From the NCBI GenBank assembly GCA_002269645.1, contig NIVC01002689.1, positions 1-64,000 on the forward strand: DNA of 64,000 nt. The letters run 5' to 3'. This document shows positions 17,411 through 46,539 of this stretch, piece after piece. The translations under genes and the position numbers were made by a program. The notes beneath the pieces were generated by a model. That model ran no database searches. It had not been told where the DNA came from and saw nothing but the letters and a program-made list of their open reading frames with translations. Source of the DNA: Macrostomum lignano (taxonomy: Eukaryota). Position 1 is the first letter of the stretch; each line of letters opens with the position of its first letter.

Positions 17411-17581
17411 CATGGGTTGGGAAACTTTTTTACTCATACCTCAAGGGCCATATAGAGAACCCAGCGCGTGACTGCGGGGCAGAGGGAGAAAGAAAGAAGA
17501 GAGGAGGGAAGAGAGAAAAGGGAGAGGAGAGATTGTAGAGAGAGCTGAGAAGAGAAACCCAGATTGCCATTGTGACCCCTG
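17411..17581. mobile_element. Degenerate Charlie/hAT-like MITE family B with purine-rich core
   Basis: Ends CATGGGTTGGGAAAC...GACCCCTG; left flank GTCTAGAC matches the Charlie NTCTAGAN target, right flank GTTAAGAT; related copies at ~18907-19165 and 48209-48591. Confidence 0.6.
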
Positions 17582-20810: not shown

Positions 20811-23800
20811 TCAGGAGCTGCTAGGGAAGGGCACAGATCTTGGATTGCCGTAGAAGCACAGGTAGCAATCCTCTAGCAGGCGGTTGCCCTGTTCTGGAGG
20901 CGGTGCGTTGCCTGTCTTGCCTTGAAGATCGCGAAGCCACTCTTCAAGGCCATCGACGCGGGTCACCTCCGGGATGTTGTAGTCATCGTTGCAGCCTGGA
21001 AATTCAATCATTTATGAACTGGTTAGAATAGGGGGTGGCATAGATATGGGGATGGGGATGAGTAGTAGGGGTTAGCAGAACACGGCCGACACGGCGGAGA
21101 TAGGAGGCGGAGTAGTGCATTGGGATAGGAGGAGGCGGCCTATCTCTCAACATAGAGACGGTTAACACTGCAGAGATAGGAGGAGAGGAGGCGGCCTATC
21201 TCTTTGTACTGGGGATGTTCAACACTGTAGAGATAGGGGAGGCGGCTAACTTTTGCACAAACAAAAACAATTTTACTACCTGGACAAATAAGAAGGGGTG
21301 GCTGCTGCAGAGTAACTGTCTGGGGGCCTGGATTGGCCTGGATTTAGCTGTTTTTTCTTGCATGCACTGTACAGTGTTTACTGGCTGGTCTTTGTTGCTT
21401 TACTAAGTGTACTTACTGATAATAGACGAGTCTATTGGGTCAATTACTGGACGCCATATATTGTACCTGGAAACATTTAGCATTCATTCAACTAACCCAC
21501 TCAATCTTATCTCTGCAGTGTTAACCATCCCAAGTACAAAGAGATAGGCCGCCTCTCCTCCTATCTCTGCAGTGTTAACCATCCCAAGTACAAAGAGATA
21601 GGCCGCCTCTCCTCCTATCTATGCAGTGTTAACCGTCCCAAGTACAAAGAGATAGGCAGCCTCTCCTCCTATCTCTACAGTGTTAACCGTCCCAAGTACA
21701 AAGAGATAGGCAGCCTCTCCTCCTATCTCTACAGTGTTAACCATCCCAAGTACAAAGAGATAGGCTGCCTCTCCTCCTATCTCTACAGTGTTAACCGTCC
21801 CAAGTACAAAGAGATAGGCAGCCTCTCCTCCTATCTCTACAGTGTTAACCATCCCAAGTACAAAGAGATAGGCTGCCTCTCCTCCTATCTCTACAGTGTT
21901 AACCGTCCCAAGTACAAAGAGATAGGCTGCCTCTCCTCCTATCTCTACAGTGTTAACCGTCCCAAGTACAAAGAGATAGGCTGCCTCTCCTCCTATCTCT
22001 ACAGTGTTAACCGTCCCAAGTACAAAGAGATAGGCTGCCTCTCCTCCTATCTCTACAGTGTTAACCGTCCCAAGTACAAAGAGATAGGCAGCCTCTCCTC
22101 CTATCTCTACAGTGTTAACCGTCCCAAGTACAAAGAGATAGGCAGCCTCTCCTCCTATCTCTACAGTGTTAACCGTCCCAAGTACAAAGAGATAGGCAGC
22201 CTCTCCTCCTATCTCTACAGTGTTAACCATCCCAAGTACAAAGAGATAGGCTGCCTCTCCTCCTATCTCTACAGTGTTAACCGTCCCAAGTACAAAGAGA
22301 TAGGCAGCCTCTCCTCCTATCTCTACAGTGTTAACCATCCCAAGTACAAAGAGATAGGCTGCCTCTCCTCCTATCTCTACAGTGTTAACCGTCCCAAGTA
22401 CAAAGAGATAGGCTGCCTCTCCTCCTATCTCTACAGTGTTAACCGTCCCAAGTACAAAGAGATAGGCTGCCTCTCCTCCTATCTCTACAGTGTTAACCGT
22501 CCCAAGTACAAAGAGATAGGCCGCCTCTCCTCCTATCTCTGCAGTGTTAACCGTCCCAAGTACAAAGAGATAGGCTGCCTCTCTGCCTATCTCTACAGTG
22601 TTAACCGTCCCAAGTACAAAGAGATAGGCAGCCTCTCCTCCTATCTCTACAGTGTTAACCGTCCCAAGTACAAAGAGATAGGCAGCCTCTCCTCCTATCT
22701 CTACAGTGTTAACCGTCCCAAGTACAAAGAGATAGGCAGCCTCTCCTCCTATCTCTACAGTGTTAACCGTCCCAAGTACAAAGAGATAGGCTGCCTCTCC
22801 TCCTATCTCTACAGTGTTAACCGTCCCAAGTACAAAGAGATAGGCTGCCTCTCCTCCTATCTCTGCAGTGTTAACCGTCCCAAGTACAAAGAGATAGGCT
22901 GCCTCTCCTCCTATCTCTGCAGTGTTAACCGTCCCAAGTACAAAGAGATAGGCTGCCTCTCTGCCTATCTCTACAGTGTTAACCATCCCAAGTACAAAGA
23001 GATAGGCTGCCTCTCCTCCTATCTCTACAGTGTTAACCGTCCCAAGTACAAAGAGATAGGCAGCCTCTCCTCCTATCTCTACAGTGTTAACCGTCCCAAG
23101 TACAAAGAGATAGGCAGCCTCTCCTCCTATCTCTACAGTGTTAACCATCCCAAGTACAAAGAGATAGGCTGCCTCTCCTCCTATCTCTACAGTGTTAACC
23201 GTCCTAAGTACAAAGAGATAGGCAGCCTCTCCTCCTATCTCTACAGTGTTAACCGTCCCAAGTACAAAGAGATAGGCAGCCTCTCCTCCTATCTCTACAG
23301 TGTTAACCGTCCCAAGTACAAAGAGATAGGCAGCCTCTCCGCCTATCTCTGCAGTGTTAACCATCCCAAGTACAAAGAGATAGGCAGCCTCTCCTCCTAT
23401 CTCTACAGTGTTAACCGTCCCAAGTACAAAGAGATAGGCTGCCTCTCCGCATATCTCTGCAGTTTTAACCATCCCAAGTACAAAGAGATAGGCTGCCTCT
23501 CCGCCTATCTCTGCAGTGTTAACCATCCCAAGTACAAAGAGATAGGCTGCCTCTCCGCCTATATCTGCAGTGTTAACCATCCCAAGTACAAAGAGATAGG
23601 CTGCCTCTCCTCCTATCTCTGCAGTGTTAACCATCCCAAGTACAAAGAGATAGGCAGCCTCTCCTCCTATCTCTGCAGTGTTAACCATCCCAAGTACAAA
23701 GAGATAGGCTGCCTCTCCTCCTATCTCTACAGTGTTAACCGTCCCAAGTACAAAGAGATAGGCAGCCTCTCCTCCTATCTCTACAGTGTTAACCGTCCCA

Positions 23801-26800
23801 AGTACAAAGAGATAGGCCGCCTCTCCGCCTATCTCTGCAGTGTTAACCATCTTTATGTTGAGAGATAGGCGGCCTCCTCCTATCCCAATGCACTACCCCG
23901 CCTCTTACTCGTATCTCCGCCCTGTCGCCCTGCTTACCCCTACTACTGGGATGGAATGGGGATGGCAAGGGGATGGGGATGAAATGGAAATTGGGGATGG
24001 AATGCAAGACGATGAGAGAGAGAGGATGCTGAGGCGAGTAGCTAGTCTGAACTCACCGCCCTCCCTATCGGCCATGCTATCGAAGAACAGCCAGTGGTTG
24101 GGCTCGGCCCTCAAGAAGCAGACGTAGTGGCTGGTGCAAATACAGACAACAGCCAGCAGATCCATGACAGTCTGACTTTCAACCACCTGTCCACGATTCT
24201 GATATTGCTCCAGGATATGCCTGGGATATTTAATCTTGATTGGCTCGTGCGTTTTCCCCTTTCTGTGATCCGCAAACATCTTATAGCACGGTTCGCAATA
24301 GGTGTAGTCTCGGCCGGAGTCGTGCTTGAGAAAGCACTGATGGCACTCGATGGTGGCAAAGTTGCCGCAGATGTTGCAGGCCCTGGCGGTGTCCGGCAGC
24401 AGGTTGGTGATGTTCAACTGCAGCACTGGCAGGATGCGGTGGAACATTTTATATGACTTCCCAGATCGAGGCATCTGCAGAATCAGGCACTGCGGCGGCT
24501 CGCTAAACTGGATGTTGCTCTGGATTAGCGACAGGTGCAGCAGGGTCTCAGTGTCAGCGATGTGCTCGCGTGCACCAGTGGACTGCGGCTGCTGCTGCTG
24601 CTGTGGGAACGCAAATGATACAAGCGTTGCTGTCATGTCATGGCTCAATGGGGAGTTGCTGAGATGCCAATTGGCTCAATGGGGAGTTGCTGAGATGCCA
24701 ATTGGCTCAATGGGGAGTTGCTGAGATGCCAATTGGCTCAATGGGGAGTTGCTGAGATGCCAATTGGCTCAATGGGGAGTCGCTGAGATGCCGATTGGCT
24801 CAATGGGGAGTTGCTGAGATGCCAATTGGCTCAATGGGGAGTTGCTGAGATGCCGATTGGCTCAATGGGGAGTTGCTGATGTGCCAATTGGCTCAATGGG
24901 GAGTTGCTGATGTGCCAATTGGCTCAATGGGGAGTTGCTGAGATGCCAATTGGCTCAATGGGGAGTCGCTGAGATGCCGATTGGCTCAATGGGGAGTTGC
25001 TGAGATGCCAATTGGCTCAATGGGGAGTTGCTGAGATGCCAATTGGCTCAATGGGGAGTTGCTGAGATGCCGATTGGCTCAATGGGGAGTTGCTGATGTG
25101 CCAATTGGCTCAATGGAGGAGTTGCTGAGATGCCATGGCTGATGAGGGAGTTGCTCAAAAGCCGGAAAGCTGATCCCTAGGCGATGATATCAGGGAATGC
25201 GACAGCTATTTTAGCTCCACAAATTTCTTATGTCAAAAAACAATTATATAGAAGGCTTATTTAATATCAGTGTGATTGCTAGTCCTTTAGCCAATAGATT
25301 ATTAATATAAACTTATATGAACGTTTTTTGCTGCATATCCGGTATACACATAAAATAATGAATTCGCTGAGATTTTTATAATCTTATCGTTCAAAGATCA
25401 CACACCTGCTGTTGCTGCTTCTGCTGTTCGAAAGGCAAATCGGCCCGATCAAGAAACAGCTGCAGCACATGGGAGCTCTGCCCAGTGCTCAGTTTGATGA
25501 ACGGCTCGTGACGGAGCGCGTGGTCCAGCAGCAGGTTGATGAACTCCTCGGGGTCTGCGGGTTGGGTTGAAAATGACATGAGAATAAAAAGGTATATCAT
25601 GTTTTCTGGGGATCTGGGAGAGTAGGGACTTAGTCTGGGGATCTGGGAGAGTAGGGACTTAGTTTGGGGATCTGGGAGAGTAGGGACTTAGTCTGGGGAT
25701 CTGGGAGAGTAGGGACTTAGTTTGGGGATCTGGGAGAGTAGGGACTTAGTCTGGGGATCTGGGAGAGTAGGGACTTAGTCTAGGGATCTGGGAGAGTAGG
25801 GACTCTGTAATAACTTTAAAGGCAAAGGCTGGCTTGTTGCACGAATTCAGTTTGCTCTGCTGAGCTAAGTGAGCTGAGAATCGCAGAGACACCGGAAAGG
25901 AAGTGCCGTTCCCAAGCAGAGTGGGAGGCACCTTTAAAGAGTATATTTGGGGTGGGTGCGCCCCGAGCTTCGTAGAGGGAAGGCAGTGGGACTCACATAG
26001 ACAGTGGAAAGATACAATGGGGTGAGTCACACGCAGACAGACAGACAGACAGACAGAGACGAGGAACCAGACACACGAAGTGATTCAGACAAGGGGGGTA
26101 CAAACATAACAGAAAACACAAGAGTACACAATGTCGGTTAATGTCCGTGGCACAAACACCACATCTCCCCCCTCAGTCAGCTTCCTCATCACGGCATCTG
26201 AAGTCTCTCCGGTGAACGTCGCGTGCGCGCCGGATAGCGCCGCGGAGCAGCAGGCCCGGGGCTCTCGTGCGCCGAATTGGCACCACCGCTGGGCACCGCC
26301 TGCACATCAGCCGCGGCAGTGGTGCTGTCGATGCCTTGTTGGTTGCGGGCGTCGCCAGGTGCCGTGTGGCCAGCGTCGGGTGACGGCTCGCTGACATCGG
26401 CGGGCTGAACGCTAGTGTCGGCGGCGGGTGCAGCCAGCAGCTGGTCGTTGTGCCGAACGTGTCGCCCCTGCTCCGAGTCGACGGTGCAATTGCGGCTGCC
26501 AGCACTCGCGATGACGCCCTCCGCCCAGCGCGGCGAATCGCCGGCCCTCGCGCCAACGCTGTAGTCGCGGAAGAGGACGCGGTCACCTGGCAGGAACTCG
26601 CGCGCGCGCCGCCGCTCCTGTAGCAGCTGCTCCTGTCGCTGCTGCACATCGCTGGCCAGCGAAGGCTTCAGGAGATCCAGGCGGCAGCGGAGACGCCGGC
26701 CTATGAGCAGCTGGCTCGGAGCGACACCGCTGACGCTGTGCGGGGTGTTGCGGTAGGAGAGCAGCAGCCGCTGCAGCTCAGCGTTGGAGTGGCCGCTCTT

Positions 26801-29800
26801 GAGAAGGTGCCGCTTGAGCACCTGGACAAAGCGCTCGGCCTGGCCGTTCGTGGCGGGATGAAACGGCGCCGAGAAGATGTGCCGAATGCCGTTGGCCTTG
26901 GTGAACTCGGCGAACTCGGCGGAGGCGAACTGAGCCCCGTTGTCGGACACCAACGTGCGAGGGATGCCTTGGCGAGCGAAGATCTCTCGCAGGCCCGCGA
27001 TGGTGGAGGTCGCCGCCGCGCTGCGCATCTGCTGCACCTCCGGCCACTTGCTGTGAGCGTCTACCACCACCAGGTACACGTAGCCGTTGACGGGCCCGGC
27101 GAAGTCGACATGCAGGCGCTCCCATGGCTCTGTCGGGAATGGCCATGACTGTACTGGTGCCTTAGGCGGGTCTGCCTGGTTGAGCTGGCAGGTGCGGCAG
27201 GCCTTGGCCGCAGCTTCCAGATCGCTGTCGATGCCTGGCCACCAGACATAGCTGCGGGCAAGAGCACGCATCCTGCTGATGCCGGGATGCGCTTGGTGCA
27301 GCTCCTGCATCACTTGCTGTCGGAGCGCTGTCGGTACTACGACCCTGGCGCCCCAGAGCACACAGCCCTGGTCAACCGATAGCTCGGACTGTCGGCGGGC
27401 GAAATCGATGAGATCGGCCTCGATGGACGCACCCGACTGCAGACAGCGCAGCACGCGGCCCAGCGTGGCGTCCGTCCTGGTGTGCCGCGAGACTGCTTGC
27501 GCTGTGATGGCGGACCCTACGCCCTCGTCGAGCAGCAGCGAATTGACAGCCGCCTCCTCCTCAAACAGCTGCGGTAGCGGCAGCCGCGAGAGTGAGTCGC
27601 AGTTGGCGTGCTTCTCCGTCGGCCGGAACTCCAGCGAGTAGTCATAGCTCGCCAGGCGGATGGCCCAGCGCTGCATGCGTGCGGCTGCGTGCGCGGGGAT
27701 GGCCTTGCGCTCGCCCAGCAGACCCAGCAGCGGCAAGTGGTCGGTGACGATGGTGAACCGGCGGCCGTAGAGAAACTGGTGGAAGCGCTGCAGGCCAAAC
27801 ATGATGGCCAGCGCCTCCTTGTCTAGCTGCGAGTAGCCACGTTGAGCTGCCGTTAGGCTGCGGCTGGCGAAGGCGACTGCGCAGTCCTTGTTGCCGATGC
27901 GATGAGTCAGCACGACGCCCAAGCCGTAGGGTGAGGCGTCACACTCCAGGCGTAGAGGCAGGTCCGGGCTGTAGTGCACGAGCACCGGTGACTGGAGTAG
28001 CAATCGCTTCGCCTCGTCAAACGCCCGCTGCTGCGGCTGCTCCCAGGTCCAGCGCGTGTTCTTGGCCAGTAGCTGGTGGAGTGGTGCCAGCACGGTGGAC
28101 AGGTTTGGCAGAAACTTGCAATACTGTGCCAACATGCCGAGAAACGAGCGCAGCTGGTTGACATCTTTTGGAGCCGGCGCATCCTGGACGGCGGAGACTC
28201 GATCAGGCAGCGGACTGAGGCCGTTGGCGTCGATGCGATGGCCCAGATACTCGACGGAGTCCTTAAAGAACTGGCACTTGTCTTTGTTCAGAAGAAGGCC
28301 AGCGCCCTGCAGGCGATGCAGGACTAGAGCCAGGTTCTTTTTGTGCTGCTGCAGCGTGCCGCCTGTGACGAGGATGTCGTCGACGAAGACCTGGACGGCG
28401 TTGAGGCCCCCCAGCAGGGTGTCCAGCGTCCGCTGAAAGATTGCGCTGGCGCTGGTGATGCCGAAAGGCATGCGGTTTAGCTGGAAAAGTCCTCTTGGCG
28501 TGTTGATAGTGAGGAAGGCCTTGCTGTCTTCGGACAGCGGCAGCTGCAGGAAGGCGTTGGACAGGTCCAGCTTGGACCACTTGCAGCCACCGCCGAGCTT
28601 GGCGAAGAGGTCCTCGATGCGTGGCAGCGGGTAGTGCTCCGGCTTGCTCGCCGCGTTGTAGGTGAGCTTGTAGTCACCGCAGATCCTAACGCTGCCGTCC
28701 TTCTTCACCACTGGCACAATGGGTGCCGCCCAGTCGCTGTGCTTGACCGCTTTGATGATTCCGCTGGCCTCCATGCGCTGCAGCTCGGCGTCCACACGTT
28801 CGCGCAGAGCGTAGGGGACGGGACGGGCCTTGAAAAACCGTGGCTGCGCGCCTTCGGTGACCTGCAACCGGACTTGGCCATGCTGAAATTCTCCCAGGCC
28901 GTCCTCGAAGACAGAGGAGAACTCCTTGATGAGGTCCCCGACGCCGTCGTCTGCAGAGACGGAGTGGACCTGCGCCATGATGCTCGGCCAGTTCAGCCGC
29001 AGTCTGGCCAGCCAGTCGCGCCCCAGCAACGGAGTGTCGCCCTGTGTGACGACAAGCAGAGGGAGCTGCAGATGTTGACCGTCGAGCTGGACGGTGACAG
29101 ATGCCTGGCCGATGGGGCGAAATCGCTCGTTGGTGAAGGTGCGCAGGATAGCTGCGGACGGTGACAGAGGCAGCTGCGGCAACAGCTTCTGCTGCAGGCT
29201 CTGCGGGATCAGAGTGACCGCAGATCCAGTGTCGATAACGAATCGGCACGGCTGTCCGTTAACCTGCAGCTGCACCGTTGGGCCTGCGTTGCTTCTAGAC
29301 GGCTGAACGGCGAAGATTGGCATTTGGGCGGTCGCCTCGGGTGGCGATTGCGGATCCTCATGCAGGAGTTGCAGCTTGGCCGAGCGGCAAACCTTACGGA
29401 TGTGGCCAGTCTTGCCACAGGCGTGGCACTTGGCGTCCCGCAGCTTGCACTGCTGGCGGCTGTGGGCGCCGCCGCAGCTTCCGCAGGCGCCGCTGTTGCT
29501 GTTGCTGCCAGCATTGCCGCCTTTTTTGCCGAAGCTGCTGGTACTGCCGCTTTTTCCGCCGCCTCGCTGCTGAAATACGCTCCCACCGCCGCCATGGGAA
29601 GACCCGGCACCGCGGCGCTTGTGCTGCTGGTTGCCGTGCGCATGCAGCTGAGCTACAGGGGCTGCCGCTCTGTGCGCCATCTCGTGCGATGACTTCTCTG
29701 CAGACTCCAAGGAGAGGATTTTCTGCTGCAGAGACTTAAAGGTGGGCTTCACCTCCTCCAGCAGCTTCACTCGGAAGGCGTCACTGAGCAGGCCGAAGAC

Positions 29801-32800
29801 GAGTTGGTCGCGGAGCCGCTCCTCCAGAGTGTTGCCGAAGTTGCAGTGGGCCGACAAGGCCTTCAGACCGGCGATGAACTCAGCGAAGGTCTCACCAGGC
29901 TGCTGCAGACGACGCTGGAAGCGAAAGCGGGCTGCCAGCTCGGATGGCTGTGGAGCGTAGTGATTTCGCAGGATCTCCGTTAGCTCATCGAATGACTTGT
30001 CTGCGATCTTTTTGGGAAGACAGAGGTTGCGCAGCACTGAATAAGCTTCCTCGCCAATTGCTGTGACGAGTGTAGCCACCTTGGCCTCTTCCTTCACCTC
30101 TTTGCAGATGAAGTAATGTTGCAGTCTCTCCAGATATACGTCAATATCTGTGTTCGCGGAGAGAATTGGGATGCCTCCCAGCGCGGAACTCGTCGCCATT
30201 GTAATAACTTTAAAGGCAAAGGCTGGCTTGTTGCACGAATTCAGTTTGCTCTGCTGAGCTAAGTGAGCTGAGAATCGCAGAGACACCGGAAAGGAAGTGC
30301 CGTTCCCAAGCAGAGTGGGAGGCACCTTTAAAGAGTATATTTGGGGTGGGTGCGCCCCGAGCTTCGTAGAGGGAAGGCAGTGGGACTCACATAGACAGTG
30401 GAAAGATACAATGGGGTGAGTCACACGCAGACAGACAGACAGACAGACAGAGACGAGGAACCAGACACACGAAGTGATTCAGACAAGGGGGGTACAAACA
30501 TAACAGAAAACACAAGAGTACACAATGTCGGTTAATGTCCGTGGCACAAACACCACATCTCCCCCCTCAGTCAGCTTCCTCATCACGGCATCTGAAGTCT
30601 CTCCGGTGAACGTCGCGTGCGCGCCGGATAGCGCCGCGGAGCAGCAGGCCCGGGGCTCTCGTGCGCCGAATTGGCACCACCGCTGGGCACCGCCTGCACA
30701 TCAGCCGCGGCAGTGGTGCTGTCGATGCCTTGTTGGTTGCGGGCGTCGCCAGGTGCCGTGTGGCCAGCGTCGGGTGACGGCTCGCTGACATCGGCGGGCT
30801 GAACGCTAGTGTCGGCGGCGGGTGCAGCCAGCAGCTGGTCGTTGTGCCGAACGTGTCGCCCCTGCTCCGAGTCGACGGTGCAATTGCGGCTGCCAGCACT
30901 CGCGATGACGCCCTCCGCCCAGCGCGGCGAATCGCCGGCCCTCGCGCCAACGCTGTAGTCGCGGAAGAGGACGCGGTCACCTGGCAGGAACTCGCGCGCG
31001 CGCCGCCGCTCCTGTAGCAGCTGCTCCTGTCGCTGCTGCACATCGCTGGCCAGCGAAGGCTTCAGGAGATCCAGGCGGCAGCGGAGACGCCGGCCTATGA
31101 GCAGCTGGCTCGGAGCGACACCGCTGACGCTGTGCGGGGTGTTGCGGTAGGAGAGCAGCAGCCGCTGCAGCTCAGCGTTGGAGTGGCCGCTCTTGAGAAG
31201 GTGCCGCTTGAGCACCTGGACAAAGCGCTCGGCCTGGCCGTTCGTGGCGGGATGAAACGGCGCCGAGAAGATGTGCCGAATGCCGTTGGCCTTGGTGAAC
31301 TCGGCGAACTCGGCGGAGGCGAACTGAGCCCCGTTGTCGGACACCAACGTGCGAGGGATGCCTTGGCGAGCGAAGATCTCTCGCAGGCCCGCGATGGTGG
31401 AGGTCGCCGCCGCGCTGCGCATCTGCTGCACCTCCGGCCACTTGCTGTGAGCGTCTACCACCACCAGGTACACGTAGCCGTTGACGGGCCCGGCGAAGTC
31501 GACATGCAGGCGCTCCCATGGCTCTGTCGGGAATGGCCATGACTGTACTGGTGCCTTAGGCGGGTCTGCCTGGTTGAGCTGGCAGGTGCGGCAGGCCTTG
31601 GCCGCAGCTTCCAGATCGCTGTCGATGCCTGGCCACCAGACATAGCTGCGGGCAAGAGCACGCATCCTGCTGATGCCGGGATGCGCTTGGTGCAGCTCCT
31701 GCATCACTTGCTGTCGGAGCGCTGTCGGTACTACGACCCTGGCGCCCCAGAGCACACAGCCCTGGTCAACCGATAGCTCGGACTGTCGGCGGGCGAAATC
31801 GATGAGATCGGCCTCGATGGACGCACCCGACTGCAGACAGCGCAGCACGCGGCCCAGCGTGGCGTCCGTCCTGGTGTGCCGCGAGACTGCTTGCGCTGTG
31901 ATGGCGGACCCTACGCCCTCGTCGAGCAGCAGCGAATTGACAGCCGCCTCCTCCTCAAACAGCTGCGGTAGCGGCAGCCGCGAGAGTGAGTCGCAGTTGG
32001 CGTGCTTCTCCGTCGGCCGGAACTCCAGCGAGTAGTCATAGCTCGCCAGGCGGATGGCCCAGCGCTGCATGCGTGCGGCTGCGTGCGCGGGGATGGCCTT
32101 GCGCTCGCCCAGCAGACCCAGCAGCGGCAAGTGGTCGGTGACGATGGTGAACCGGCGGCCGTAGAGAAACTGGTGGAAGCGCTGCAGGCCAAACATGATG
32201 GCCAGCGCCTCCTTGTCTAGCTGCGAGTAGCCACGTTGAGCTGCCGTTAGGCTGCGGCTGGCGAAGGCGACTGCGCAGTCCTTGTTGCCGATGCGATGAG
32301 TCAGCACGACGCCCAAGCCGTAGGGTGAGGCGTCACACTCCAGGCGTAGAGGCAGGTCCGGGCTGTAGTGCACGAGCACCGGTGACTGGAGTAGCAATCG
32401 CTTCGCCTCGTCAAACGCCCGCTGCTGCGGCTGCTCCCAGGTCCAGCGCGTGTTCTTGGCCAGTAGCTGGTGGAGTGGTGCCAGCACGGTGGACAGGTTT
32501 GGCAGAAACTTGCAATACTGTGCCAACATGCCGAGAAACGAGCGCAGCTGGTTGACATCTTTTGGAGCCGGCGCATCCTGGACGGCGGAGACTCGATCAG
32601 GCAGCGGACTGAGGCCGTTGGCGTCGATGCGATGGCCCAGATACTCGACGGAGTCCTTAAAGAACTGGCACTTGTCTTTGTTCAGAAGAAGGCCAGCGCC
32701 CTGCAGGCGATGCAGGACTAGAGCCAGGTTCTTTTTGTGCTGCTGCAGCGTGCCGCCTGTGACGAGGATGTCGTCGACGAAGACCTGGACGGCGTTGAGG

Positions 32801-35800
32801 CCCCCCAGCAGGGTGTCCAGCGTCCGCTGAAAGATTGCGCTGGCGCTGGTGATGCCGAAAGGCATGCGGTTTAGCTGGAAAAGTCCTCTTGGCGTGTTGA
32901 TAGTGAGGAAGGCCTTGCTGTCTTCGGACAGCGGCAGCTGCAGGAAGGCGTTGGACAGGTCCAGCTTGGACCACTTGCAGCCACCGCCGAGCTTGGCGAA
33001 GAGGTCCTCGATGCGTGGCAGCGGGTAGTGCTCCGGCTTGCTCGCCGCGTTGTAGGTGAGCTTGTAGTCACCGCAGATCCTAACGCTGCCGTCCTTCTTC
33101 ACCACTGGCACAATGGGTGCCGCCCAGTCGCTGTGCTTGACCGCTTTGATGATTCCGCTGGCCTCCATGCGCTGCAGCTCGGCGTCCACACGTTCGCGCA
33201 GAGCGTAGGGGACGGGACGGGCCTTGAAAAACCGTGGCTGCGCGCCTTCGGTGACCTGCAACCGGACTTGGCCATGCTGAAATTCTCCCAGGCCGTCCTC
33301 GAAGACAGAGGAGAACTCCTTGATGAGGTCCCCGACGCCGTCGTCTGCAGAGACGGAGTGGACCTGCGCCATGATGCTCGGCCAGTTCAGCCGCAGTCTG
33401 GCCAGCCAGTCGCGCCCCAGCAACGGAGTGTCGCCCTGTGTGACGACAAGCAGAGGGAGCTGCAGATGTTGACCGTCGAGCTGGACGGTGACAGATGCCT
33501 GGCCGATGGGGCGAAATCGCTCGTTGGTGAAGGTGCGCAGGATAGCTGCGGACGGTGACAGAGGCAGCTGCGGCAACAGCTTCTGCTGCAGGCTCTGCGG
33601 GATCAGAGTGACCGCAGATCCAGTGTCGATAACGAATCGGCACGGCTGTCCGTTAACCTGCAGCTGCACCGTTGGGCCTGCGTTGCTTCTAGACGGCTGA
33701 ACGGCGAAGATTGGCATTTGGGCGGTCGCCTCGGGTGGCGATTGCGGATCCTCATGCAGGAGTTGCAGCTTGGCCGAGCGGCAAACCTTACGGATGTGGC
33801 CAGTCTTGCCACAGGCGTGGCACTTGGCGTCCCGCAGCTTGCACTGCTGGCGGCTGTGGGCGCCGCCGCAGCTTCCGCAGGCGCCGCTGTTGCTGTTGCT
33901 GCCAGCATTGCCGCCTTTTTTGCCGAAGCTGCTGGTACTGCCGCTTTTTCCGCCGCCTCGCTGCTGAAATACGCTCCCACCGCCGCCATGGGAAGACCCG
34001 GCACCGCGGCGCTTGTGCTGCTGGTTGCCGTGCGCATGCAGCTGAGCTACAGGGGCTGCCGCTCTGTGCGCCATCTCGTGCGATGACTTCTCTGCAGACT
34101 CCAAGGAGAGGATTTTCTGCTGCAGAGACTTAAAGGTGGGCTTCACCTCCTCCAGCAGCTTCACTCGGAAGGCGTCACTGAGCAGGCCGAAGACGAGTTG
34201 GTCGCGGAGCCGCTCCTCCAGAGTGTTGCCGAAGTTGCAGTGGGCCGACAAGGCCTTCAGACCGGCGATGAACTCAGCGAAGGTCTCACCAGGCTGCTGC
34301 AGACGACGCTGGAAGCGAAAGCGGGCTGCCAGCTCGGATGGCTGTGGAGCGTAGTGATTTCGCAGGATCTCCGTTAGCTCATCGAATGACTTGTCTGCGA
34401 TCTTTTTGGGAAGACAGAGGTTGCGCAGCACTGAATAAGCTTCCTCGCCAATTGCTGTGACGAGTGTAGCCACCTTGGCCTCTTCCTTCACCTCTTTGCA
34501 GATGAAGTAATGTTGCAGTCTCTCCAGATATACGTCAATATCTGTGTTCGCGGAGAGAATTGGGATGCCTCCCAGCGCGGAACTCGTCGCCATTGTAATA
34601 ACTTTAAAGGCAAAGGCTGGCTTGTTGCACGAATTCAGTTTGCTCTGCTGAGCTAAGTGAGCTGAGAATCGCAGAGACACCGGAAAGGAAGTGCCGTTCC
34701 CAAGCAGAGTGGGAGGCACCTTTAAAGAGTATATTTGGGGTGGGTGCGCCCCGAGCTTCGTAGAGGGAAGGCAGTGGGACTCACATAGACAGTGGAAAGA
34801 TACAATGGGGTGAGTCACACGCAGACAGACAGACAGACAGACAGAGACGAGGAACCAGACACACGAAGTGATTCAGACAAGGGGGGTACAAACATAACAG
34901 AAAACACAAGAGTACACAATGTCGGTTAATGTCCGTGGCACAAACACCACATCTCCCCCCTCAGTCAGCTTCCTCATCACGGCATCTGAAGTCTCTCCGG
35001 TGAACGTCGCGTGCGCGCCGGATAGCGCCGCGGAGCAGCAGGCCCGGGGCTCTCGTGCGCCGAATTGGCACCACCGCTGGGCACCGCCTGCACATCAGCC
35101 GCGGCAGTGGTGCTGTCGATGCCTTGTTGGTTGCGGGCGTCGCCAGGTGCCGTGTGGCCAGCGTCGGGTGACGGCTCGCTGACATCGGCGGGCTGAACGC
35201 TAGTGTCGGCGGCGGGTGCAGCCAGCAGCTGGTCGTTGTGCCGAACGTGTCGCCCCTGCTCCGAGTCGACGGTGCAATTGCGGCTGCCAGCACTCGCGAT
35301 GACGCCCTCCGCCCAGCGCGGCGAATCGCCGGCCCTCGCGCCAACGCTGTAGTCGCGGAAGAGGACGCGGTCACCTGGCAGGAACTCGCGCGCGCGCCGC
35401 CGCTCCTGTAGCAGCTGCTCCTGTCGCTGCTGCACATCGCTGGCCAGCGAAGGCTTCAGGAGATCCAGGCGGCAGCGGAGACGCCGGCCTATGAGCAGCT
35501 GGCTCGGAGCGACACCGCTGACGCTGTGCGGGGTGTTGCGGTAGGAGAGCAGCAGCCGCTGCAGCTCAGCGTTGGAGTGGCCGCTCTTGAGAAGGTGCCG
35601 CTTGAGCACCTGGACAAAGCGCTCGGCCTGGCCGTTCGTGGCGGGATGAAACGGCGCCGAGAAGATGTGCCGAATGCCGTTGGCCTTGGTGAACTCGGCG
35701 AACTCGGCGGAGGCGAACTGAGCCCCGTTGTCGGACACCAACGTGCGAGGGATGCCTTGGCGAGCGAAGATCTCTCGCAGGCCCGCGATGGTGGAGGTCG

Positions 35801-38800
35801 CCGCCGCGCTGCGCATCTGCTGCACCTCCGGCCACTTGCTGTGAGCGTCTACCACCACCAGGTACACGTAGCCGTTGACGGGCCCGGCGAAGTCGACATG
35901 CAGGCGCTCCCATGGCTCTGTCGGGAATGGCCATGACTGTACTGGTGCCTTAGGCGGGTCTGCCTGGTTGAGCTGGCAGGTGCGGCAGGCCTTGGCCGCA
36001 GCTTCCAGATCGCTGTCGATGCCTGGCCACCAGACATAGCTGCGGGCAAGAGCACGCATCCTGCTGATGCCGGGATGCGCTTGGTGCAGCTCCTGCATCA
36101 CTTGCTGTCGGAGCGCTGTCGGTACTACGACCCTGGCGCCCCAGAGCACACAGCCCTGGTCAACCGATAGCTCGGACTGTCGGCGGGCGAAATCGATGAG
36201 ATCGGCCTCGATGGACGCACCCGACTGCAGACAGCGCAGCACGCGGCCCAGCGTGGCGTCCGTCCTGGTGTGCCGCGAGACTGCTTGCGCTGTGATGGCG
36301 GACCCTACGCCCTCGTCGAGCAGCAGCGAATTGACAGCCGCCTCCTCCTCAAACAGCTGCGGTAGCGGCAGCCGCGAGAGTGAGTCGCAGTTGGCGTGCT
36401 TCTCCGTCGGCCGGAACTCCAGCGAGTAGTCATAGCTCGCCAGGCGGATGGCCCAGCGCTGCATGCGTGCGGCTGCGTGCGCGGGGATGGCCTTGCGCTC
36501 GCCCAGCAGACCCAGCAGCGGCAAGTGGTCGGTGACGATGGTGAACCGGCGGCCGTAGAGAAACTGGTGGAAGCGCTGCAGGCCAAACATGATGGCCAGC
36601 GCCTCCTTGTCTAGCTGCGAGTAGCCACGTTGAGCTGCCGTTAGGCTGCGGCTGGCGAAGGCGACTGCGCAGTCCTTGTTGCCGATGCGATGAGTCAGCA
36701 CGACGCCCAAGCCGTAGGGTGAGGCGTCACACTCCAGGCGTAGAGGCAGGTCCGGGCTGTAGTGCACGAGCACCGGTGACTGGAGTAGCAATCGCTTCGC
36801 CTCGTCAAACGCCCGCTGCTGCGGCTGCTCCCAGGTCCAGCGCGTGTTCTTGACCAGTAGCTGGTGGAGTGGTGCCAGCACGGTGGACAGGTTTGGCAGA
36901 AACTTGCAATACTGTGCCAACATGCCGAGAAACGAGCGCAGCTGGTTGACATCTTTTGGAGCCGGCGCATCCTGGACGGCGGAGACTCGATCAGGCAGCG
37001 GACTGAGGCCGTTGGCGTCGATGCGATGGCCCAGATACTCGACGGAGTCCTTAAAGAACTGGCACTTGTCTTTGTTCAGAAGAAGGCCAGCGCCCTGCAG
37101 GCGATGCAGGACTAGAGCCAGGTTCTTTTTGTGCTGCTGCAGCGTGCCGCCTGTGACGAGGATGTCGTCGACGAAGACCTGGACGGCGTTGAGGCCCCCA
37201 GCAGGGTGTCCAGCGTCCGCTGAAAGATTGCGCTGGCGCTGGTGATGCCGAAAGGCATGCGGTTTAGCTGGAAAAGTCCTCTTGGCGTGTTGATAGTGAG
37301 GAAGGCCTTGCTGTCTTCGGACAGCGGCAGCTGCAGGAAGGCGTTGGACAGGTCCAGCTTGGACCACTTGCAGCCACCGCCGAGCTTGGCGAAGAGGTCC
37401 TCGATGCGTGGCAGCGGGTAGTGCTCCGGCTTGCTCGCCGCGTTGTAGGTGAGCTTGTAGTCACCGCAGATCCTAACGCTGCCGTCCTTCTTCACCACTG
37501 GCACAATGGGTGCCGCCCAGTCGCTGTGCTTGACCGCTTTGATGATTCCGCTGGCCTCCATGCGCTGCAGCTCGGCGTCCACACGTTCGCGCAGAGCGTA
37601 GGGGACGGGACGGGCCTTGAAAAACCGTGGCTGCGCGCCTTCGGTGACCTGCAACCGGACTTGGCCATGCTGAAATTCTCCCAGGCCGTCCTCGAAGACA
37701 GAGGAGAACTCCTTGATGAGGTCCCCGACGCCGTCGTCTGCAGAGACGGAGTGGACCTGCGCCATGATGCTCGGCCAGTTCAGCCGCAGTCTGGCCAGCC
37801 AGTCGCGCCCCAGCAACGGAGTGTCGCCCTGTGTGACGACAAGCAGAGGGAGCTGCAGATGTTGACCGTCGAGCTGGACGGTGACAGATGCCTGGCCGAT
37901 GGGGCGAAATCGCTCGTTGGTGAAGGTGCGCAGGATAGCTGCGGACGGTGACAGAGGCAGCTGCGGCAACAGCTTCTGCTGCAGGCTCTGCGGGATCAGA
38001 GTGACCGCAGATCCAGTGTCGATAACGAATCGGCACGGCTGTCCGTTAACCTGCAGCTGCACCGTTGGGCCTGCGTTGCTTCTAGACGGCTGAACGGCGA
38101 AGATTGGCATTTGGGCGGTCGCCTCGGGTGGCGATTGCGGATCCTCATGCAGGAGTTGCAGCTTGGCCGAGCGGCAAACCTTACGGATGTGGCCAGTCTT
38201 GCCACAGGCGTGGCACTTGGCGTCCCGCAGCTTGCACTGCTGGCGGCTGTGGGCGCCGCCGCAGCTTCCGCAGGCGCCGCTGTTGCTGTTGCTGCCAGCA
38301 TTGCCGCCTTTTTTGCCGAAGCTGCTGGTACTGCCGCTTTTTCCGCCGCCTCGCTGCTGAAATACGCTCCCACCGCCGCCATGGGAAGACCCGGCACCGC
38401 GGCGCTTGTGCTGCTGGTTGCCGTGCGCATGCAGCTGAGCTACAGGGGCTGCCGCTCTGTGCGCCATCTCGTGCGATGACTTCTCTGCAGACTCCAAGGA
38501 GAGGATTTTCTGCTGCAGAGACTTAAAGGTGGGCTTCACCTCCTCCAGCAGCTTCACTCGGAAGGCGTCACTGAGCAGGCCGAAGACGAGTTGGTCGCGG
38601 AGCCGCTCCTCCAGAGTGTTGCCGAAGTTGCAGTGGGCCGACAAGGCCTTCAGACCGGCGATGAACTCAGCGAAGGTCTCACCAGGCTGCTGCAGACGAC
38701 GCTGGAAGCGAAAGCGGGCTGCCAGCTCGGATGGCTGTGGAGCGTAGTGATTTCGCAGGATCTCCGTTAGCTCATCGAATGACTTGTCTGCGATCTTTTT

Positions 38801-41800
38801 GGGAAGACAGAGGTTGCGCAGCACTGAATAAGCTTCCTCGCCAATTGCTGTGACGAGTGTAGCCACCTTGGCCTCTTCCTTCACCTCTTTGCAGATGAAG
38901 TAATGTTGCAGTCTCTCCAGATATACGTCAATATCTGTGTTCGCGGAGAGAATTGGGATGCCTCCCAGCGCGGAACTCGTCGCCATTGTAATAACTTTAA
39001 AGGCAAAGGCTGGCTTGTTGCACGAATTCAGTTTGCTCTGCTGAGCTAAGTGAGCTGAGAATCGCAGAGACACCGGAAAGGAAGTGCCGTTCCCAAGCAG
39101 AGTGGGAGGCACCTTTAAAGAGTATATTTGGGGTGGGTGCGCCCCGAGCTTCGTAGAGGGAAGGCAGTGGGACTCACATAGACAGTGGAAAGATACAATG
39201 GGGTGAGTCACACGCAGACAGACAGACAGACAGACAGAGACGAGGAACCAGACACACGAAGTGATTCAGACAAGGGGGGTACAAACATAACAGAAAACAC
39301 AAGAGTACACAATGTCGGTTAATGTCCGTGGCACAAACACCACATCTCCCCCCTCAGTCAGCTTCCTCATCACGGCATCTGAAGTCTCTCCGGTGAACGT
39401 CGCGTGCGCGCCGGATAGCGCCGCGGAGCAGCAGGCCCGGGGCTCTCGTGCGCCGAATTGGCACCACCGCTGGGCACCGCCTGCACATCAGCCGCGGCAG
39501 TGGTGCTGTCGATGCCTTGTTGGTTGCGGGCGTCGCCAGGTGCCGTGTGGCCAGCGTCGGGTGACGGCTCGCTGACATCGGCGGGCTGAACGCTAGTGTC
39601 GGCGGCGGGTGCAGCCAGCAGCTGGTCGTTGTGCCGAACGTGTCGCCCCTGCTCCGAGTCGACGGTGCAATTGCGGCTGCCAGCACTCGCGATGACGCCC
39701 TCCGCCCAGCGCGGCGAATCGCCGGCCCTCGCGCCAACGCTGTAGTCGCGGAAGAGGACGCGGTCACCTGGCAGGAACTCGCGCGCGCGCCGCCGCTCCT
39801 GTAGCAGCTGCTCCTGTCGCTGCTGCACATCGCTGGCCAGCGAAGGCTTCAGGAGATCCAGGCGGCAGCGGAGACGCCGGCCTATGAGCAGCTGGCTCGG
39901 AGCGACACCGCTGACGCTGTGCGGGGTGTTGCGGTAGGAGAGCAGCAGCCGCTGCAGCTCAGCGTTGGAGTGGCCGCTCTTGAGAAGGTGCCGCTTGAGC
40001 ACCTGGACAAAGCGCTCGGCCTGGCCGTTCGTGGCGGGATGAAACGGCGCCGAGAAGATGTGCCGAATGCCGTTGGCCTTGGTGAACTCGGCGAACTCGG
40101 CGGAGGCGAACTGAGCCCCGTTGTCGGACACCAACGTGCGAGGGATGCCTTGGCGAGCGAAGATCTCTCGCAGGCCCGCGATGGTGGAGGTCGCCGCCGC
40201 GCTGCGCATCTGCTGCACCTCCGGCCACTTGCTGTGAGCGTCTACCACCACCAGGTACACGTAGCCGTTGACGGGCCCGGCGAAGTCGACATGCAGGCGC
40301 TCCCATGGCTCTGTCGGGAATGGCCATGACTGTACTGGTGCCTTAGGCGGGTCTGCCTGGTTGAGCTGGCAGGTGCGGCAGGCCTTGGCCGCAGCTTCCA
40401 GATCGCTGTCGATGCCTGGCCACCAGACATAGCTGCGGGCAAGAGCACGCATCCTGCTGATGCCGGGATGCGCTTGGTGCAGCTCCTGCATCACTTGCTG
40501 TCGGAGCGCTGTCGGTACTACGACCCTGGCGCCCCAGAGCACACAGCCCTGGTCAACCGATAGCTCGGACTGTCGGCGGGCGAAATCGATGAGATCGGCC
40601 TCGATGGACGCACCCGACTGCAGACAGCGCAGCACGCGGCCCAGCGTGGCGTCCGTCCTGGTGTGCCGCGAGACTGCTTGCGCTGTGATGGCGGACCCTA
40701 CGCCCTCGTCGAGCAGCAGCGAATTGACAGCCGCCTCCTCCTCAAACAGCTGCGGTAGCGGCAGCCGCGAGAGTGAGTCGCAGTTGGCGTGCTTCTCCGT
40801 CGGCCGGAACTCCAGCGAGTAGTCATAGCTCGCCAGGCGGATGGCCCAGCGCTGCATGCGTGCGGCTGCGTGCGCGGGGATGGCCTTGCGCTCGCCCAGC
40901 AGACCCAGCAGCGGCAAGTGGTCGGTGACGATGGTGAACCGGCGGCCGTAGAGAAACTGGTGGAAGCGCTGCAGGCCAAACATGATGGCCAGCGCCTCCT
41001 TGTCTAGCTGCGAGTAGCCACGTTGAGCTGCCGTTAGGCTGCGGCTGGCGAAGGCGACTGCGCAGTCCTTGTTGCCGATGCGATGAGTCAGCACGACGCC
41101 CAAGCCGTAGGGTGAGGCGTCACACTCCAGGCGTAGAGGCAGGTCCGGGCTGTAGTGCACGAGCACCGGTGACTGGAGTAGCAATCGCTTCGCCTCGTCA
41201 AACGCCCGCTGCTGCGGCTGCTCCCAGGTCCAGCGCGTGTTCTTGACCAGTAGCTGGTGGAGTGGTGCCAGCACGGTGGACAGGTTTGGCAGAAACTTGC
41301 AATACTGTGCCAACATGCCGAGAAACGAGCGCAGCTGGTTGACATCTTTTGGAGCCGGCGCATCCTGGACGGCGGAGACTCGATCAGGCAGCGGACTGAG
41401 GCCGTTGGCGTCGATGCGATGGCCCAGATACTCGACGGAGTCCTTAAAGAACTGGCACTTGTCTTTGTTCAGAAGAAGGCCAGCGCCCTGCAGGCGATGC
41501 AGGACTAGAGCCAGGTTCTTTTTGTGCTGCTGCAGCGTGCCGCCTGTGACGAGGATGTCGTCGACGAAGACCTGGACGGCGTTGAGGCCCCCCAGCAGGG
41601 TGTCCAGCGTCCGCTGAAAGATTGCGCTGGCGCTGGTGATGCCGAAAGGCATGCGGTTTAGCTGGAAAAGTCCTCTTGGCGTGTTGATAGTGAGGAAGGC
41701 CTTGCTGTCTTCGGACAGCGGCAGCTGCAGGAAGGCGTTGGACAGGTCCAGCTTGGACCACTTGCAGCCACCGCCGAGCTTGGCGAAGAGGTCCTCGATG

Positions 41801-44800
41801 CGTGGCAGCGGGTAGTGCTCCGGCTTGCTCGCCGCGTTGTAGGTGAGCTTGTAGTCACCGCAGATCCTAACGCTGCCGTCCTTCTTCACCACTGGCACAA
41901 TGGGTGCCGCCCAGTCGCTGTGCTTGACCGCTTTGATGATTCCGCTGGCCTCCATGCGCTGCAGCTCGGCGTCCACACGTTCGCGCAGAGCGTAGGGGAC
42001 GGGACGGGCCTTGAAAAACCGTGGCTGCGCGCCTTCGGTGACCTGCAACCGGACTTGGCCATGCTGAAATTCTCCCAGGCCGTCCTCGAAGACAGAGGAG
42101 AACTCCTTGATGAGGTCCCCGACGCCGTCGTCTGCAGAGACGGAGTGGACCTGCGCCATGATGCTCGGCCAGTTCAGCCGCAGTCTGGCCAGCCAGTCGC
42201 GCCCCAGCAACGGAGTGTCGCCCTGTGTGACGACAAGCAGAGGGAGCTGCAGATGTTGACCGTCGAGCTGGACGGTGACAGATGCCTGGCCGATGGGGCG
42301 AAATCGCTCGTTGGTGAAGGTGCGCAGGATAGCTGCGGACGGTGACAGAGGCAGCTGCGGCAACAGCTTCTGCTGCAGGCTCTGCGGGATCAGAGTGACC
42401 GCAGATCCAGTGTCGATAACGAATCGGCACGGCTGTCCGTTAACCTGCAGCTGCACCGTTGGGCCTGCGTTGCTTCTAGACGGCTGAACGGCGAAGATTG
42501 GCATTTGGGCGGTCGCCTCGGGTGGCGATTGCGGATCCTCATGCAGGAGTTGCAGCTTGGCCGAGCGGCAAACCTTACGGATGTGGCCAGTCTTGCCACA
42601 GGCGTGGCACTTGGCGTCCCGCAGCTTGCACTGCTGGCGGCTGTGGGCGCCGCCGCAGCTTCCGCAGGCGCCGCTGTTGCTGTTGCTGCCAGCATTGCCG
42701 CCTTTTTTGCCGAAGCTGCTGGTACTGCCGCTTTTTCCGCCGCCTCGCTGCTGAAATACGCTCCCACCGCCGCCATGGGAAGACCCGGCACCGCGGCGCT
42801 TGTGCTGCTGGTTGCCGTGCGCATGCAGCTGAGCTACAGGGGCTGCCGCTCTGTGCGCCATCTCGTGCGATGACTTCTCTGCAGACTCCAAGGAGAGGAT
42901 TTTCTGCTGCAGAGACTTAAAGGTGGGCTTCACCTCCTCCAGCAGCTTCACTCGGAAGGCGTCACTGAGCAGGCCGAAGACGAGTTGGTCGCGGAGCCGC
43001 TCCTCCAGAGTGTTGCCGAAGTTGCAGTGGGCCGACAAGGCCTTCAGACCGGCGATGAACTCAGCGAAGGTCTCACCAGGCTGCTGCAGACGACGCTGGA
43101 AGCGAAAGCGGGCTGCCAGCTCGGATGGCTGTGGAGCGTAGTGATTTCGCAGGATCTCCGTTAGCTCATCGAATGACTTGTCTGCGATCTTTTTGGGAAG
43201 ACAGAGGTTGCGCAGCACTGAATAAGCTTCCTCGCCAATTGCTGTGACGAGTGTAGCCACCTTGGCCTCTTCCTTCACCTCTTTGCAGATGAAGTAATGT
43301 TGCAGTCTCTCCAGATATACGTCAATATCTGTGTTCGCGGAGAGAATTGGGATGCCTCCCAGCGCGGAACTCGTCGCCATTGTAATAACTTTAAAGGCAA
43401 AGGCTGGCTTGTTGCACGAATTCAGTTTGCTCTGCTGAGCTAAGTGAGCTGAGAATCGCAGAGACACCGGAAAGGAAGTGCCGTTCCCAAGCAGAGTGGG
43501 AGGCACCTTTAAGGAGTATATTTGGGGTGGGTGCGCCCCGAGCTTCGTAGAGGGAAGGCAGTGGGACTCACATAGACAGTGGAAAGATACAATGGGGTGA
43601 GTCACACGCAGACAGACAGACAGACAGACAGAGACGAGGAACCAGACACACGAAGTGATTCAGACAAGGGGGGTACAAACATAACAGAAAACACAAGAGT
43701 ACACAATGTCGGTTAATGTCCGTGGCACAAACACCACAGACTCAGCCTGGAGATCGGGGAGAGTAGGGACTTAGTCTGGGGATATGGGAGAGTAGGGACT
43801 CAGCCTAGGGATCTGAGAAGGAGTAGGGACCCAGCCTATAGAGATCTGATAAACAGTAGGGACCCAGACTAGGGATCTGGGAGAGTAGAGACACAGTTTG
43901 AGGATTAAAGCAGACTAGTTTTACATTAAATCACCTTTTTCCTCGCCCATCATTCCTGGAATGATGTCGAGATCGTTAAGACATTTTCGCAGCTTCAGAA
44001 CTTGCCTAGCGCTGACAAACTTGTTTCTAAAAGCATTTGACAGTGGTAGAAATATATGAGAACACAAATACAATATAAAACTGTAGGTCAGGGTAGGAGT
44101 GTCGCTCACCTTCTCAAACAGTTTACAATACCTTCGCGCAAAGTATTCTTGATTTCCTCATAATTATCGATGTCTTTAGCCTGACCAGGCCGCTCTAGGA
44201 CGCCATCGAATGCGCCAACGGTGGCAAACATGGCGAACAGCGTTGAGTCCAGATAACAAGAGTTGTGATGTCCCTGGACACCGCGATTGCGACCGACCAA
44301 ATTGTCCAAACCGTCTAGGCGAATTCGAGGCTCAGTTGGACCCGCAATGGTTTCAAAGTCGCCACTGCCAAATTGGTGAGGCAGAGCCTCGGCTCCTCTG
44401 GGACGATCAGCCTGGTTATTGGCATTTTGCGCTGGCTCAATGGCATCCAGAAAGGTGAACCACAGATAAGGCTGAACATCTGGATGCACGGCTCGCACTT
44501 GGCTAGAAGGCACGAACCCGTGGCCTCCGCGTTCAACTCCTTCGTTGTCATCAAGAGCAACGCCAACAACCAGATCTGTTTGGTTTGGAATGAAACCGAA
44601 CCACATAACCATGCCGACCTTGTCCAGGAATGTTAAATTGACATGCGAGTCGATTCGAATGCCTCTACTCTCCATCAGTGCCTGCGCCTCGTCGCGACGT
44701 GGATCAGATGAGTTGGGAGGCTGAGCAGGCGGCTGATAAATTCGGCCAGCATTGGCGCGGCTCTCTACAAAATATGAGCAGTACAGCAGTTGTACAGCCT

Positions 44801-46401: not shown

Positions 46402-46539
46402 CACCAATTGCTTGTTCAAATAGCAATCTTCGCATGCATTGGTTTACGCTTGAAATTTAAACTATAGGGTATTAAAATACTTAAAAAAATAAAAATACAT
46501 TCGTTGTTGAACAGGAATTTGTTTAGTTGCTGGTGTTGT

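Follow-up and report, generated by a model that had tools for sequence, protein, structure and literature searches.

Head-to-tail arrays of retrotransposons with long terminal repeats (LTRs) in which neighbouring units share one LTR have been described in yeast, plants, flies and humans. In Schizosaccharomyces pombe, Tf2 and Tf1 tandems consist of intact Ty3/gypsy elements arranged head-to-tail with single internal LTRs and up to four units, and isolate JB22 carries a 'Quadruple Tf2' spanning 395,187-413,802, about 18.6 kb (PMC11042837). In plants such tandems are common and polymorphic, a rice pangenome having yielded 266 tandem LTR-retrotransposon candidates, gypsy-enriched and mostly recent, with LTRs and internal regions alternating within one 5-bp duplication as expected of a single insertion (PMC11899658). 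In Drosophila melanogaster, shared-LTR head-to-tail tandems were seen in every family whose LTRs are short enough for detection, and most of them were attributed to recombination between LTRs (PMC5932611). In humans, the HERV-K(HML-2) locus at 7p22.1 comprises three LTRs and two internal regions (PMC11807958). Here we describe a four-unit array of this kind in the flatworm Macrostomum lignano, formed by a predicted Mag-like Ty3/gypsy element inside an intron of a CYLD-like gene; the window, i.e. the whole stretch of DNA analysed, is 64,000 nucleotides long (contig NIVC01002689.1 of assembly GCA_002269645.1, positions 1 to 64,000 of the forward strand).

The array resembles the Tf2/Tf1 tandems in its layout, and its 17.9 kb are close to the span of the quadruple Tf2; however, those tandems occur in yeast, where Rad52-dependent annealing of cDNA was shown experimentally, whereas here the array lies in a gene intron of an animal and its mechanism is proposed (PMC11042837). 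The two dissected rice loci are dimers with 94 and 99% internal identity, in contrast to four units with more than 99.95% identity here; moreover, 73% of the rice candidates lie more than 2 kb from genes and polymorphism was shown among them, whereas this array is intronic and represented by one assembled locus (PMC11899658). The Drosophila tandems were detected as short-read junctions rather than as resolved arrays, and double insertion, the main mechanism in that paper, is excluded here (PMC5932611). The HERV-K(HML-2) locus, which is polymorphic among individuals, shares with ours an animal host and an LTR element, but it belongs to a retrovirus with env and has two units (PMC11807958). The original prediction had cited plants and Drosophila as precedents, which is correct but too narrow, given the S. 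pombe quadruple and human HERV-K. In M. lignano itself, the Mag clade of Ty3/Mdg4 elements is the largest group, with 78 of 137 families and a mean of 16.6 copies, and these families share their host species with our element; the main text of that study contains no occurrence of tandem, shared, array or intron (PMC12801592). Such arrays are mentioned in the covered parts of neither PMC12801592 nor PMC5730564, and no flatworm report of shared-LTR or head-to-tail arrays was found in the literature searched, which was thin on subscription journals.

The array occupies positions 25,806-43,738 and is composed of five LTRs of 358 bp alternating with four internal regions, head-to-tail, with an LTR at both ends and with the element reading on the minus strand. 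LTR 1, the outer 3' LTR (25,806-26,163), is followed by LTR 2, common to copies 1 and 2 (30,200-30,557), LTR 3, common to copies 2 and 3 (34,594-34,951), LTR 4, common to copies 3 and 4 (38,987-39,344), and LTR 5, the outer 5' LTR (43,381-43,738), all having TG...CA ends. The internal regions are 4,036, 4,036, 4,035 and 4,036 nt long, and a single element, taken with both LTRs, measures 4,752 nt. The unit periods are 4,394, 4,394, 4,393 and 4,394 nt, so that the predicted four-unit layout was recovered, but not the uniform period of 4,394 bp that had been claimed with it. BLAST of the window against itself returned identities of 99.96-99.97% for displacements by one, two or three periods (over 13,540, 9,146 and 4,752 nt, respectively), and no further copy, solo LTR or fragment of the element was detected in the rest of the window (word size 7, E 1e-3). 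The G+C content is 62% in the array versus about 50% in the flanking intron.

Exactly one LTR separates neighbouring units at all internal junctions. The polypurine tracts of copies 1 to 4 (26,164-26,174, 30,558-30,568, 34,952-34,962 and 39,345-39,355, minus strand) and the primer-binding sites (PBS) of the same copies (30,189-30,198, 34,583-34,592, 38,976-38,985 and 43,370-43,379, minus strand), the latter recognized by position and a TGG start, abut the LTRs in identical fashion: four of four tract-LTR junctions are the same, as are four of four LTR-PBS junctions. The internal junctions are thus as clean as had been predicted, and neither target-site nor other host sequence was found between units at any of the four junction pairs. 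The alternating layout, together with one duplication at the outer ends and none inside, makes this a shared-LTR tandem array, and as described it holds in the assembled sequence.

The outer ends are flanked by a 5-bp target-site duplication (left copy 25,801-25,805, right copy 43,739-43,743), the same 5-mer being found at these two ends of the array only. Since the flanks on both sides are one 29-bp minisatellite, represented by 6.9 units on the left (25,605-25,804) and 5.2 units on the right (43,739-43,896), such a 5-bp match could be trivial. It is not, because the left 5-mer is out of register with the minisatellite and absent from the left units: all six whole left units have one common form whose fifth base differs from that of the 5-mer, whereas the 5-mer abutting the left LTR consists of 5 additional nt that interrupt the 29-bp register and are the same as the beginning of the first right unit. 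The register is resumed to the right of the array, where the 5-mer starts two of six units. This flank pattern, as read from the sequence, is what one staggered cut would leave, and the phase of the minisatellite provides independent backing for the earlier claim of a single duplication confined to the outer ends.

Alignment of all ten LTR pairs and all six internal pairs revealed exactly three variable sites across the 17.9 kb of the array, the number originally reported. One is a substitution common to copies 3 and 4 as opposed to copies 1 and 2 (36,853 and 41,246 versus 28,065 and 32,459); as the sole shared variant, it sets copies 1-2 apart from copies 3-4, each pair forming one contiguous block. 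It changes residue 712 of the polyprotein, a highly variable position with 12 different residues among 120 relatives, at which the nearest relative (P0001) agrees with the downstream copies 1-2 and the upstream copies 3-4 carry the variant. Another, near 37,195, shifts the frame of copy 3 by one base within a homopolymer run and may be either a real mutation or a sequencing error. The remaining one, a substitution at 43,513, is private to the rightmost LTR, where it lies at position 226 of 358 within a TATA-like stretch and might change how the first unit's promoter works; LTRs 1, 2, 3 and 4 are identical in sequence. The outer LTRs therefore show 1 difference in 358 nt, or 0.28% (95% interval 0.007-1.6%), a value that is not convertible to years for want of a substitution rate for this species. 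By this difference, its sole bound, the element is likely young, and the near-identity of its units may reflect age, homogenization by recombination or read correction.

Each unit carries one gag-pol open reading frame (ORF) of 1,336 amino acid residues, intact in copy 1 (26,189-30,199), in copy 2 (30,583-34,593), whose DNA is identical to that of copy 1, and in copy 4 (39,370-43,380), which differs at residue 712; in copy 3 the coding region (34,977-38,986) is frameshifted in the reverse transcriptase (RT) domain. Pfam matches were obtained at residues 52-132 (gag, below the curated cut-off), 309-399, 499-656, 719-852 and 955-1115, giving the order gag, protease (PR), RT, RNase H and integrase (IN) that is characteristic of Ty3/gypsy elements, as are the TG...CA LTRs, the PBS after the 5' LTR, the polypurine tract before the 3' LTR and the 5-bp duplication. 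The ORF stops 25 nt before the LTR, leaving no room for env. All eight acidic catalytic positions checked in PR, RT, RNase H and IN agree with 119-120 of 120 relatives. Among 217 near-invariant columns the polyprotein deviates in 15, and since 14 of these deviations are shared with the nearest relative, they are lineage traits; decay of the polyprotein was considered and dismissed on these grounds and on the conservation of the catalytic positions. Judged by open frame and catalytic residues, copies 1, 2 and 4 are predicted to be autonomous, in agreement with the three intact copies originally proposed. A comparison with TRIM/Cassandra-type arrays, with their short, non-coding and non-autonomous units, was also rejected, as the unit encodes a full 1,336-residue polyprotein.

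The nearest protein among the best 120 of 983 matches was M. lignano Mlig026022g1 with 81% identity, followed by one with 60%, and shorter proteins reached at most 73% identity among the matches listed (best 120 of 303); each search scored 8,000 candidates, and transposon proteins are often unannotated. Neither of the two intact polyprotein variants was present in the protein collection by exact look-up. The nucleocapsid contains two zinc knuckles, at residues 239 and 258, alike in 119 of 120 relatives; two knuckles are a Mag trait, although also true of Micropia/Mdg3 (PMC2577118). Mag elements further have a total size of about 4.5-5 kb, short LTRs, one or two ORFs, a 5-bp duplication and no env, which our element matches with its 4,752 nt and one ORF, the LTRs of Culex Mag elements being shorter (119-304 bp) than the 358 bp found here and the Mag PBS being complementary to tRNA-Ser, -Leu or -Arg (PMC3286476). 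No tRNA genes were found in the window, nor any Rfam match at gathering score, and no relevant paper on the PBS motif was found. The PBS presumably pairs with tRNA-Ser(GCU). From its sequence features the element is best classified as an env-less, Mag-like Ty3/gypsy retrotransposon; the label 'Mag-like' is preferred to 'Mag' because clade-labelled RT references are absent among the listed matches and the tRNA-Ser assignment is presumptive.

The gag start codon overlaps the PBS, its ATG beginning at the first base after the LTR and the first four codons overlapping the site in each copy (30,189-30,199, 34,583-34,593, 38,976-38,986 and 43,370-43,380, minus strand). The same four residues stand at the start of the two nearest relatives, those with 81 and 60% identity, but a compatible start exists in just 6 of 120 relatives, so that this feature is at most local and was rejected as a clade-wide trait. 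The frame also stays open for 93 codons into the LTR; this extension was attributed to chance, as it contains no in-frame ATG and is equalled in 4% of 5,000 shuffles.

Positions 217-231 of the LTR form a TATA-like stretch. The hexamers AATAAA and ATTAAA are absent from the LTR and from the whole unit on both strands, whereas one or the other is found four times within 1 kb downstream of the CYLD stop codon; the absence from the LTR is of note only because LTRs normally need a 3'-end signal, about 0.05 such hexamers being expected in the LTR from its composition, and a non-canonical 3'-end signal may be used. The published heat-shock element (HSE) pattern gave no match in the LTR or unit on either strand. 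A family of M. lignano Mag elements is heat-induced, and our element differs from it in having no HSE and in that none of five terms matched its five supplements (PMC12801592); as far as tested on sequence, the two are not the same family. Each LTR also contains a tetranucleotide microsatellite of five units (26,036-26,055 and equivalent positions), of the same length in all five. A crude splice-site scan of the unit gave nothing, an uninformative outcome because the pattern used would miss the acceptor of the host gene too.

One LTR per junction and an in-phase outer duplication indicate one integration followed by amplification rather than four insertions, as the original prediction had concluded; its three candidate mechanisms for the amplification are the same as those listed in the literature. 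TG...CA ends and a 5-bp duplication mark the action of integrase, and recombination between LTRs is known to yield shared-LTR tandems. We tentatively favour, as a quite possible origin somewhat short of probable, one integrase-mediated insertion followed by stepwise unequal recombination seeded at the LTRs. One copy would have been inserted into the intronic minisatellite of the CYLD-like gene; the 3' LTR on one chromatid, misaligned with the 5' LTR on the other, would then have exchanged with it to produce a dimer with one shared LTR; with 4.75 kb of homology instead of 358 bp, further out-of-register exchanges would have become easier; and units would have been added in at least two steps to give four inside the original duplication. 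Both the order of these events and the stepwise growth are conjectural, as is the expectation that the array is unstable and could collapse to fewer units or to a solo LTR. The preference is given to unequal exchange because it needs nothing beyond the repeats themselves and because the available homology rises 13-fold after the first step. The split into two blocks of two units demands two templates or else a minimum of two rounds. Tandem, single-element and solo-LTR haplotypes are found segregating at rice loci (PMC11899658).

A toy simulation of unequal sister exchange, a simplification that can show compatibility only, was run 200,000 times from each starting state. When the starting state was a dimer whose units differed at a single site, four units were reached in 77,043 of the 200,000 runs, and 12.6% of these tetramers had the observed block pattern (52% of all 2:2 splits), compared with 11.7% for the alternating pattern. 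Starting from a monomer with a variant in its 5' LTR, 38,460 of the 200,000 runs reached four units, 30% of which kept the variant private to the outer LTR, the state observed here. Within the limits of the model, unequal exchange is thus compatible with the array but not singled out. Several points weigh against it: 87% of the tetramers simulated from the dimer showed patterns other than the observed one, the variant placed in the 5' LTR of the monomer had reached four LTRs in 55.5% of the tetramers derived from it, and three variable sites cannot identify a mechanism. In addition, recombination and tandem insertion could not be told apart in the rice study (PMC11899658), the S. pombe tandems form by Rad52-dependent cDNA annealing beside resident copies (PMC11042837), and the array is known from one assembled locus of a species whose published assemblies are error-prone.

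The last point raises the question of how far the assembly can be trusted. That the tandem itself is real is almost certain, because an internal-LTR-internal junction could not come from reads of dispersed monomers; a wholly artefactual tandem built from such monomers, the extreme form of this concern, is accordingly very improbable. It is unlikely that a real tandem is present whose count of four, 2+2 split or near-identity is a product of assembly, the underlying structure being a dimer, a trimer, a longer array or joined haplotypes or paralogous copies, or true differences having been erased by read correction. A read would have to exceed 17.9 kb to span both flanks. One published assembly combines noisy long reads with short-read polishing and has 63.95% error-free bases by REAPR (PMC5730564), and it is reported to have 36% of its length in chimeric scaffolds, with copies wrongly collapsed or expanded (PMC10733133). 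The frameshift of copy 3 sits in one of just four homopolymer runs of at least 6 bases in the unit. Errors of homopolymer length are the usual errors of long reads. The sole private substitution is 226 nt away from the outer flank, a distance at which the placement of short reads is still feasible. On the other side, assemblers collapse tandem repeats more often than they expand them, the shared variant forms clean blocks, all seven blocks of the CYLD-like protein are gap-free, and exact lengths were found for 42 of 42 periods in a 54-bp array nearby and for 15 of 15 in a 31-bp array, although a 34-bp array is less tidy (14 of 15 exact) and a 39-bp array uninformative. If the structure is taken as assembled, independent insertions at or near the same site, either as a double insertion or as neighbours fused by LTR-LTR deletion, remain to be weighed. 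The 5-mer recurs in the target minisatellite, in two of six right units, and same-phase insertions could mimic one duplication; double insertion is also a documented source of Drosophila tandems, but it leaves two LTRs and the target site between units (PMC5932611), neither of which is present at any of the three internal junctions. With just one LTR at each junction and the duplication confined to the outer ends, double insertion in the sense of the Drosophila study is excluded. The 5-mer occurs in none of six left units, and four insertions plus three exact deletions would be required, which makes the whole class of explanations extremely improbable.

Retrotransposition-based routes could also have multiplied a single insertion. 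After one normal insertion, cDNA or one-LTR circles may have recombined with the resident copy independently of integrase, units being added upstream of the resident PBS while the outer LTRs and the duplication were kept, an origin that we regard as unlikely, much like an assembly-made count, although it is the chief competitor of unequal exchange. In S. pombe, Tf1 cDNA inserts upstream of a resident Tf2 to form single-LTR tandems, and the quadruple Tf2 occurs in the wild (PMC11042837), but this evidence comes from yeast. The enzymes of the element appear intact. The variant residue 712 is found in the two upstream copies while the nearest relative agrees with the downstream pair, a weak hint whose polarity suffers from the variability of that position. 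If position 226 belongs to U3, reverse transcription would never copy the variant inward, which would fit its privacy; this second weak hint depends on where the U3/R boundary lies, and unequal exchange yields the same LTR pattern in 30% of the simulated cases. No donor was identified, with no protein above 81% identity among the matches listed (120 + 120), and the literature search on one-LTR circles with tandems returned nothing useful. Alternatively, a four-unit concatemer could have been made in one round of retrotransposition, either because transcription of a one-LTR circle ran past a weak LTR terminator or through repeated strand transfer, and integrated in a single step. This would fit the single duplication and the lack of AATAAA and ATTAAA in the unit against four occurrences after the CYLD stop, although the latter argument is weak, given the low expectation in the LTR and the possibility of a non-canonical signal. 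The route has been proposed for plant tandems (PMC11899658). A single template, however, would give identical units plus private errors, so that the 2+2 split would call for another template or some subsequent event, and some 17.9 kb, nearly four times the length of the element, would have to be packaged and reverse transcribed; we consider this origin improbable.

The fourth mapped intron of the CYLD-like gene (25,555-43,934, minus strand, GT...AG) holds the array, in sense orientation, and is bounded by an upstream exon at 43,935-44,028 (minus strand, delimited by the donor site and tblastn of P0121 at 100%) and a downstream exon at 25,406-25,554 (minus strand), the lower boundary of which is approximate. 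A flanking exon has a 100% match in M. lignano Mlig027790g3 and matches of up to 47% in CYLD proteins of fish, sharks and amphibians. Aligned to the window, the Mlig027790g3 protein falls into seven blocks without gaps (46,416 to 20,814, minus strand), of which six are at 100% and the seventh is at 84% as the alignment overruns a splice site. From the splice sites, the intron measures 18,380 nt, or 442 nt without the insert and one duplication, which bears out the predicted growth from about 440 bp to 18.4 kb. About 70% of one published M. lignano assembly lies in three-copy paralogous blocks (PMC10733133), and by extension other CYLD copies may be free of the insertion and may buffer the gene.

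A 54-bp minisatellite of 43 units (21,505-23,884) fills most of the last mapped CYLD intron, and diverged, inverted copies of it occur at 21,061-21,246. The same 15-bp minisatellite is present on both sides of the CYLD-like gene (18,131-18,877 and 46,522-47,233, 85% identity), and related pairs were detected at 11,971-12,597 and 19,665-20,240 (68%) and at 17,576-18,112 and 19,158-19,647 (74%); these pairs suggest dispersed minisatellite-carrying elements or old local duplications. A GC-rich 15-bp minisatellite of 34 units (1,064-1,567) recurs inverted 12 kb away, at 13,778-13,882. The neighbouring genes encode a protein with TPR and DnaJ domains (6,670-10,407, minus strand), which we take to be DNAJC3-like, a second DnaJ protein (48,759-49,778, minus strand) and a DEAD-box helicase (58,495-62,650, plus strand), presumably eIF4A3-like, with minisatellites in its introns. 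Exon-like ORFs with no Pfam match at E 0.001 are located at 13,240-16,635 (minus strand), 57,339-57,605 (plus strand) and 336-2,009 (minus strand).

The array represents no new phenomenon but a clean flatworm example of an arrangement known from yeast, plants, flies and humans; general knowledge of LTR elements is unchanged by it. It extends shared-LTR arrays to a flatworm with four near-identical units, three of them with intact enzymes, between unique flanks, and the host minisatellite fixes the insertion site. For the M. lignano genome it implies that LTR finders and copy counts may score one insertion as several. The rice study left open whether such tandems originate by recombination or by transposition (PMC11899658), a question that a locus in a laboratory animal could address. 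A bolder reading, which we regard as improbable, is that arrays are the routine multiplication of this family, the hexamer-less LTR being read through and cDNA or circles recombining into resident copies; equally improbable is its corollary, that the intronic site becomes a growing bank of active elements spliced out whole by the host gene. If true, the yeast Tf1/Tf2 route would have been caught at work in an animal for the first time, and in a species for which transgenesis is available the growth and collapse of the array could be followed over generations.

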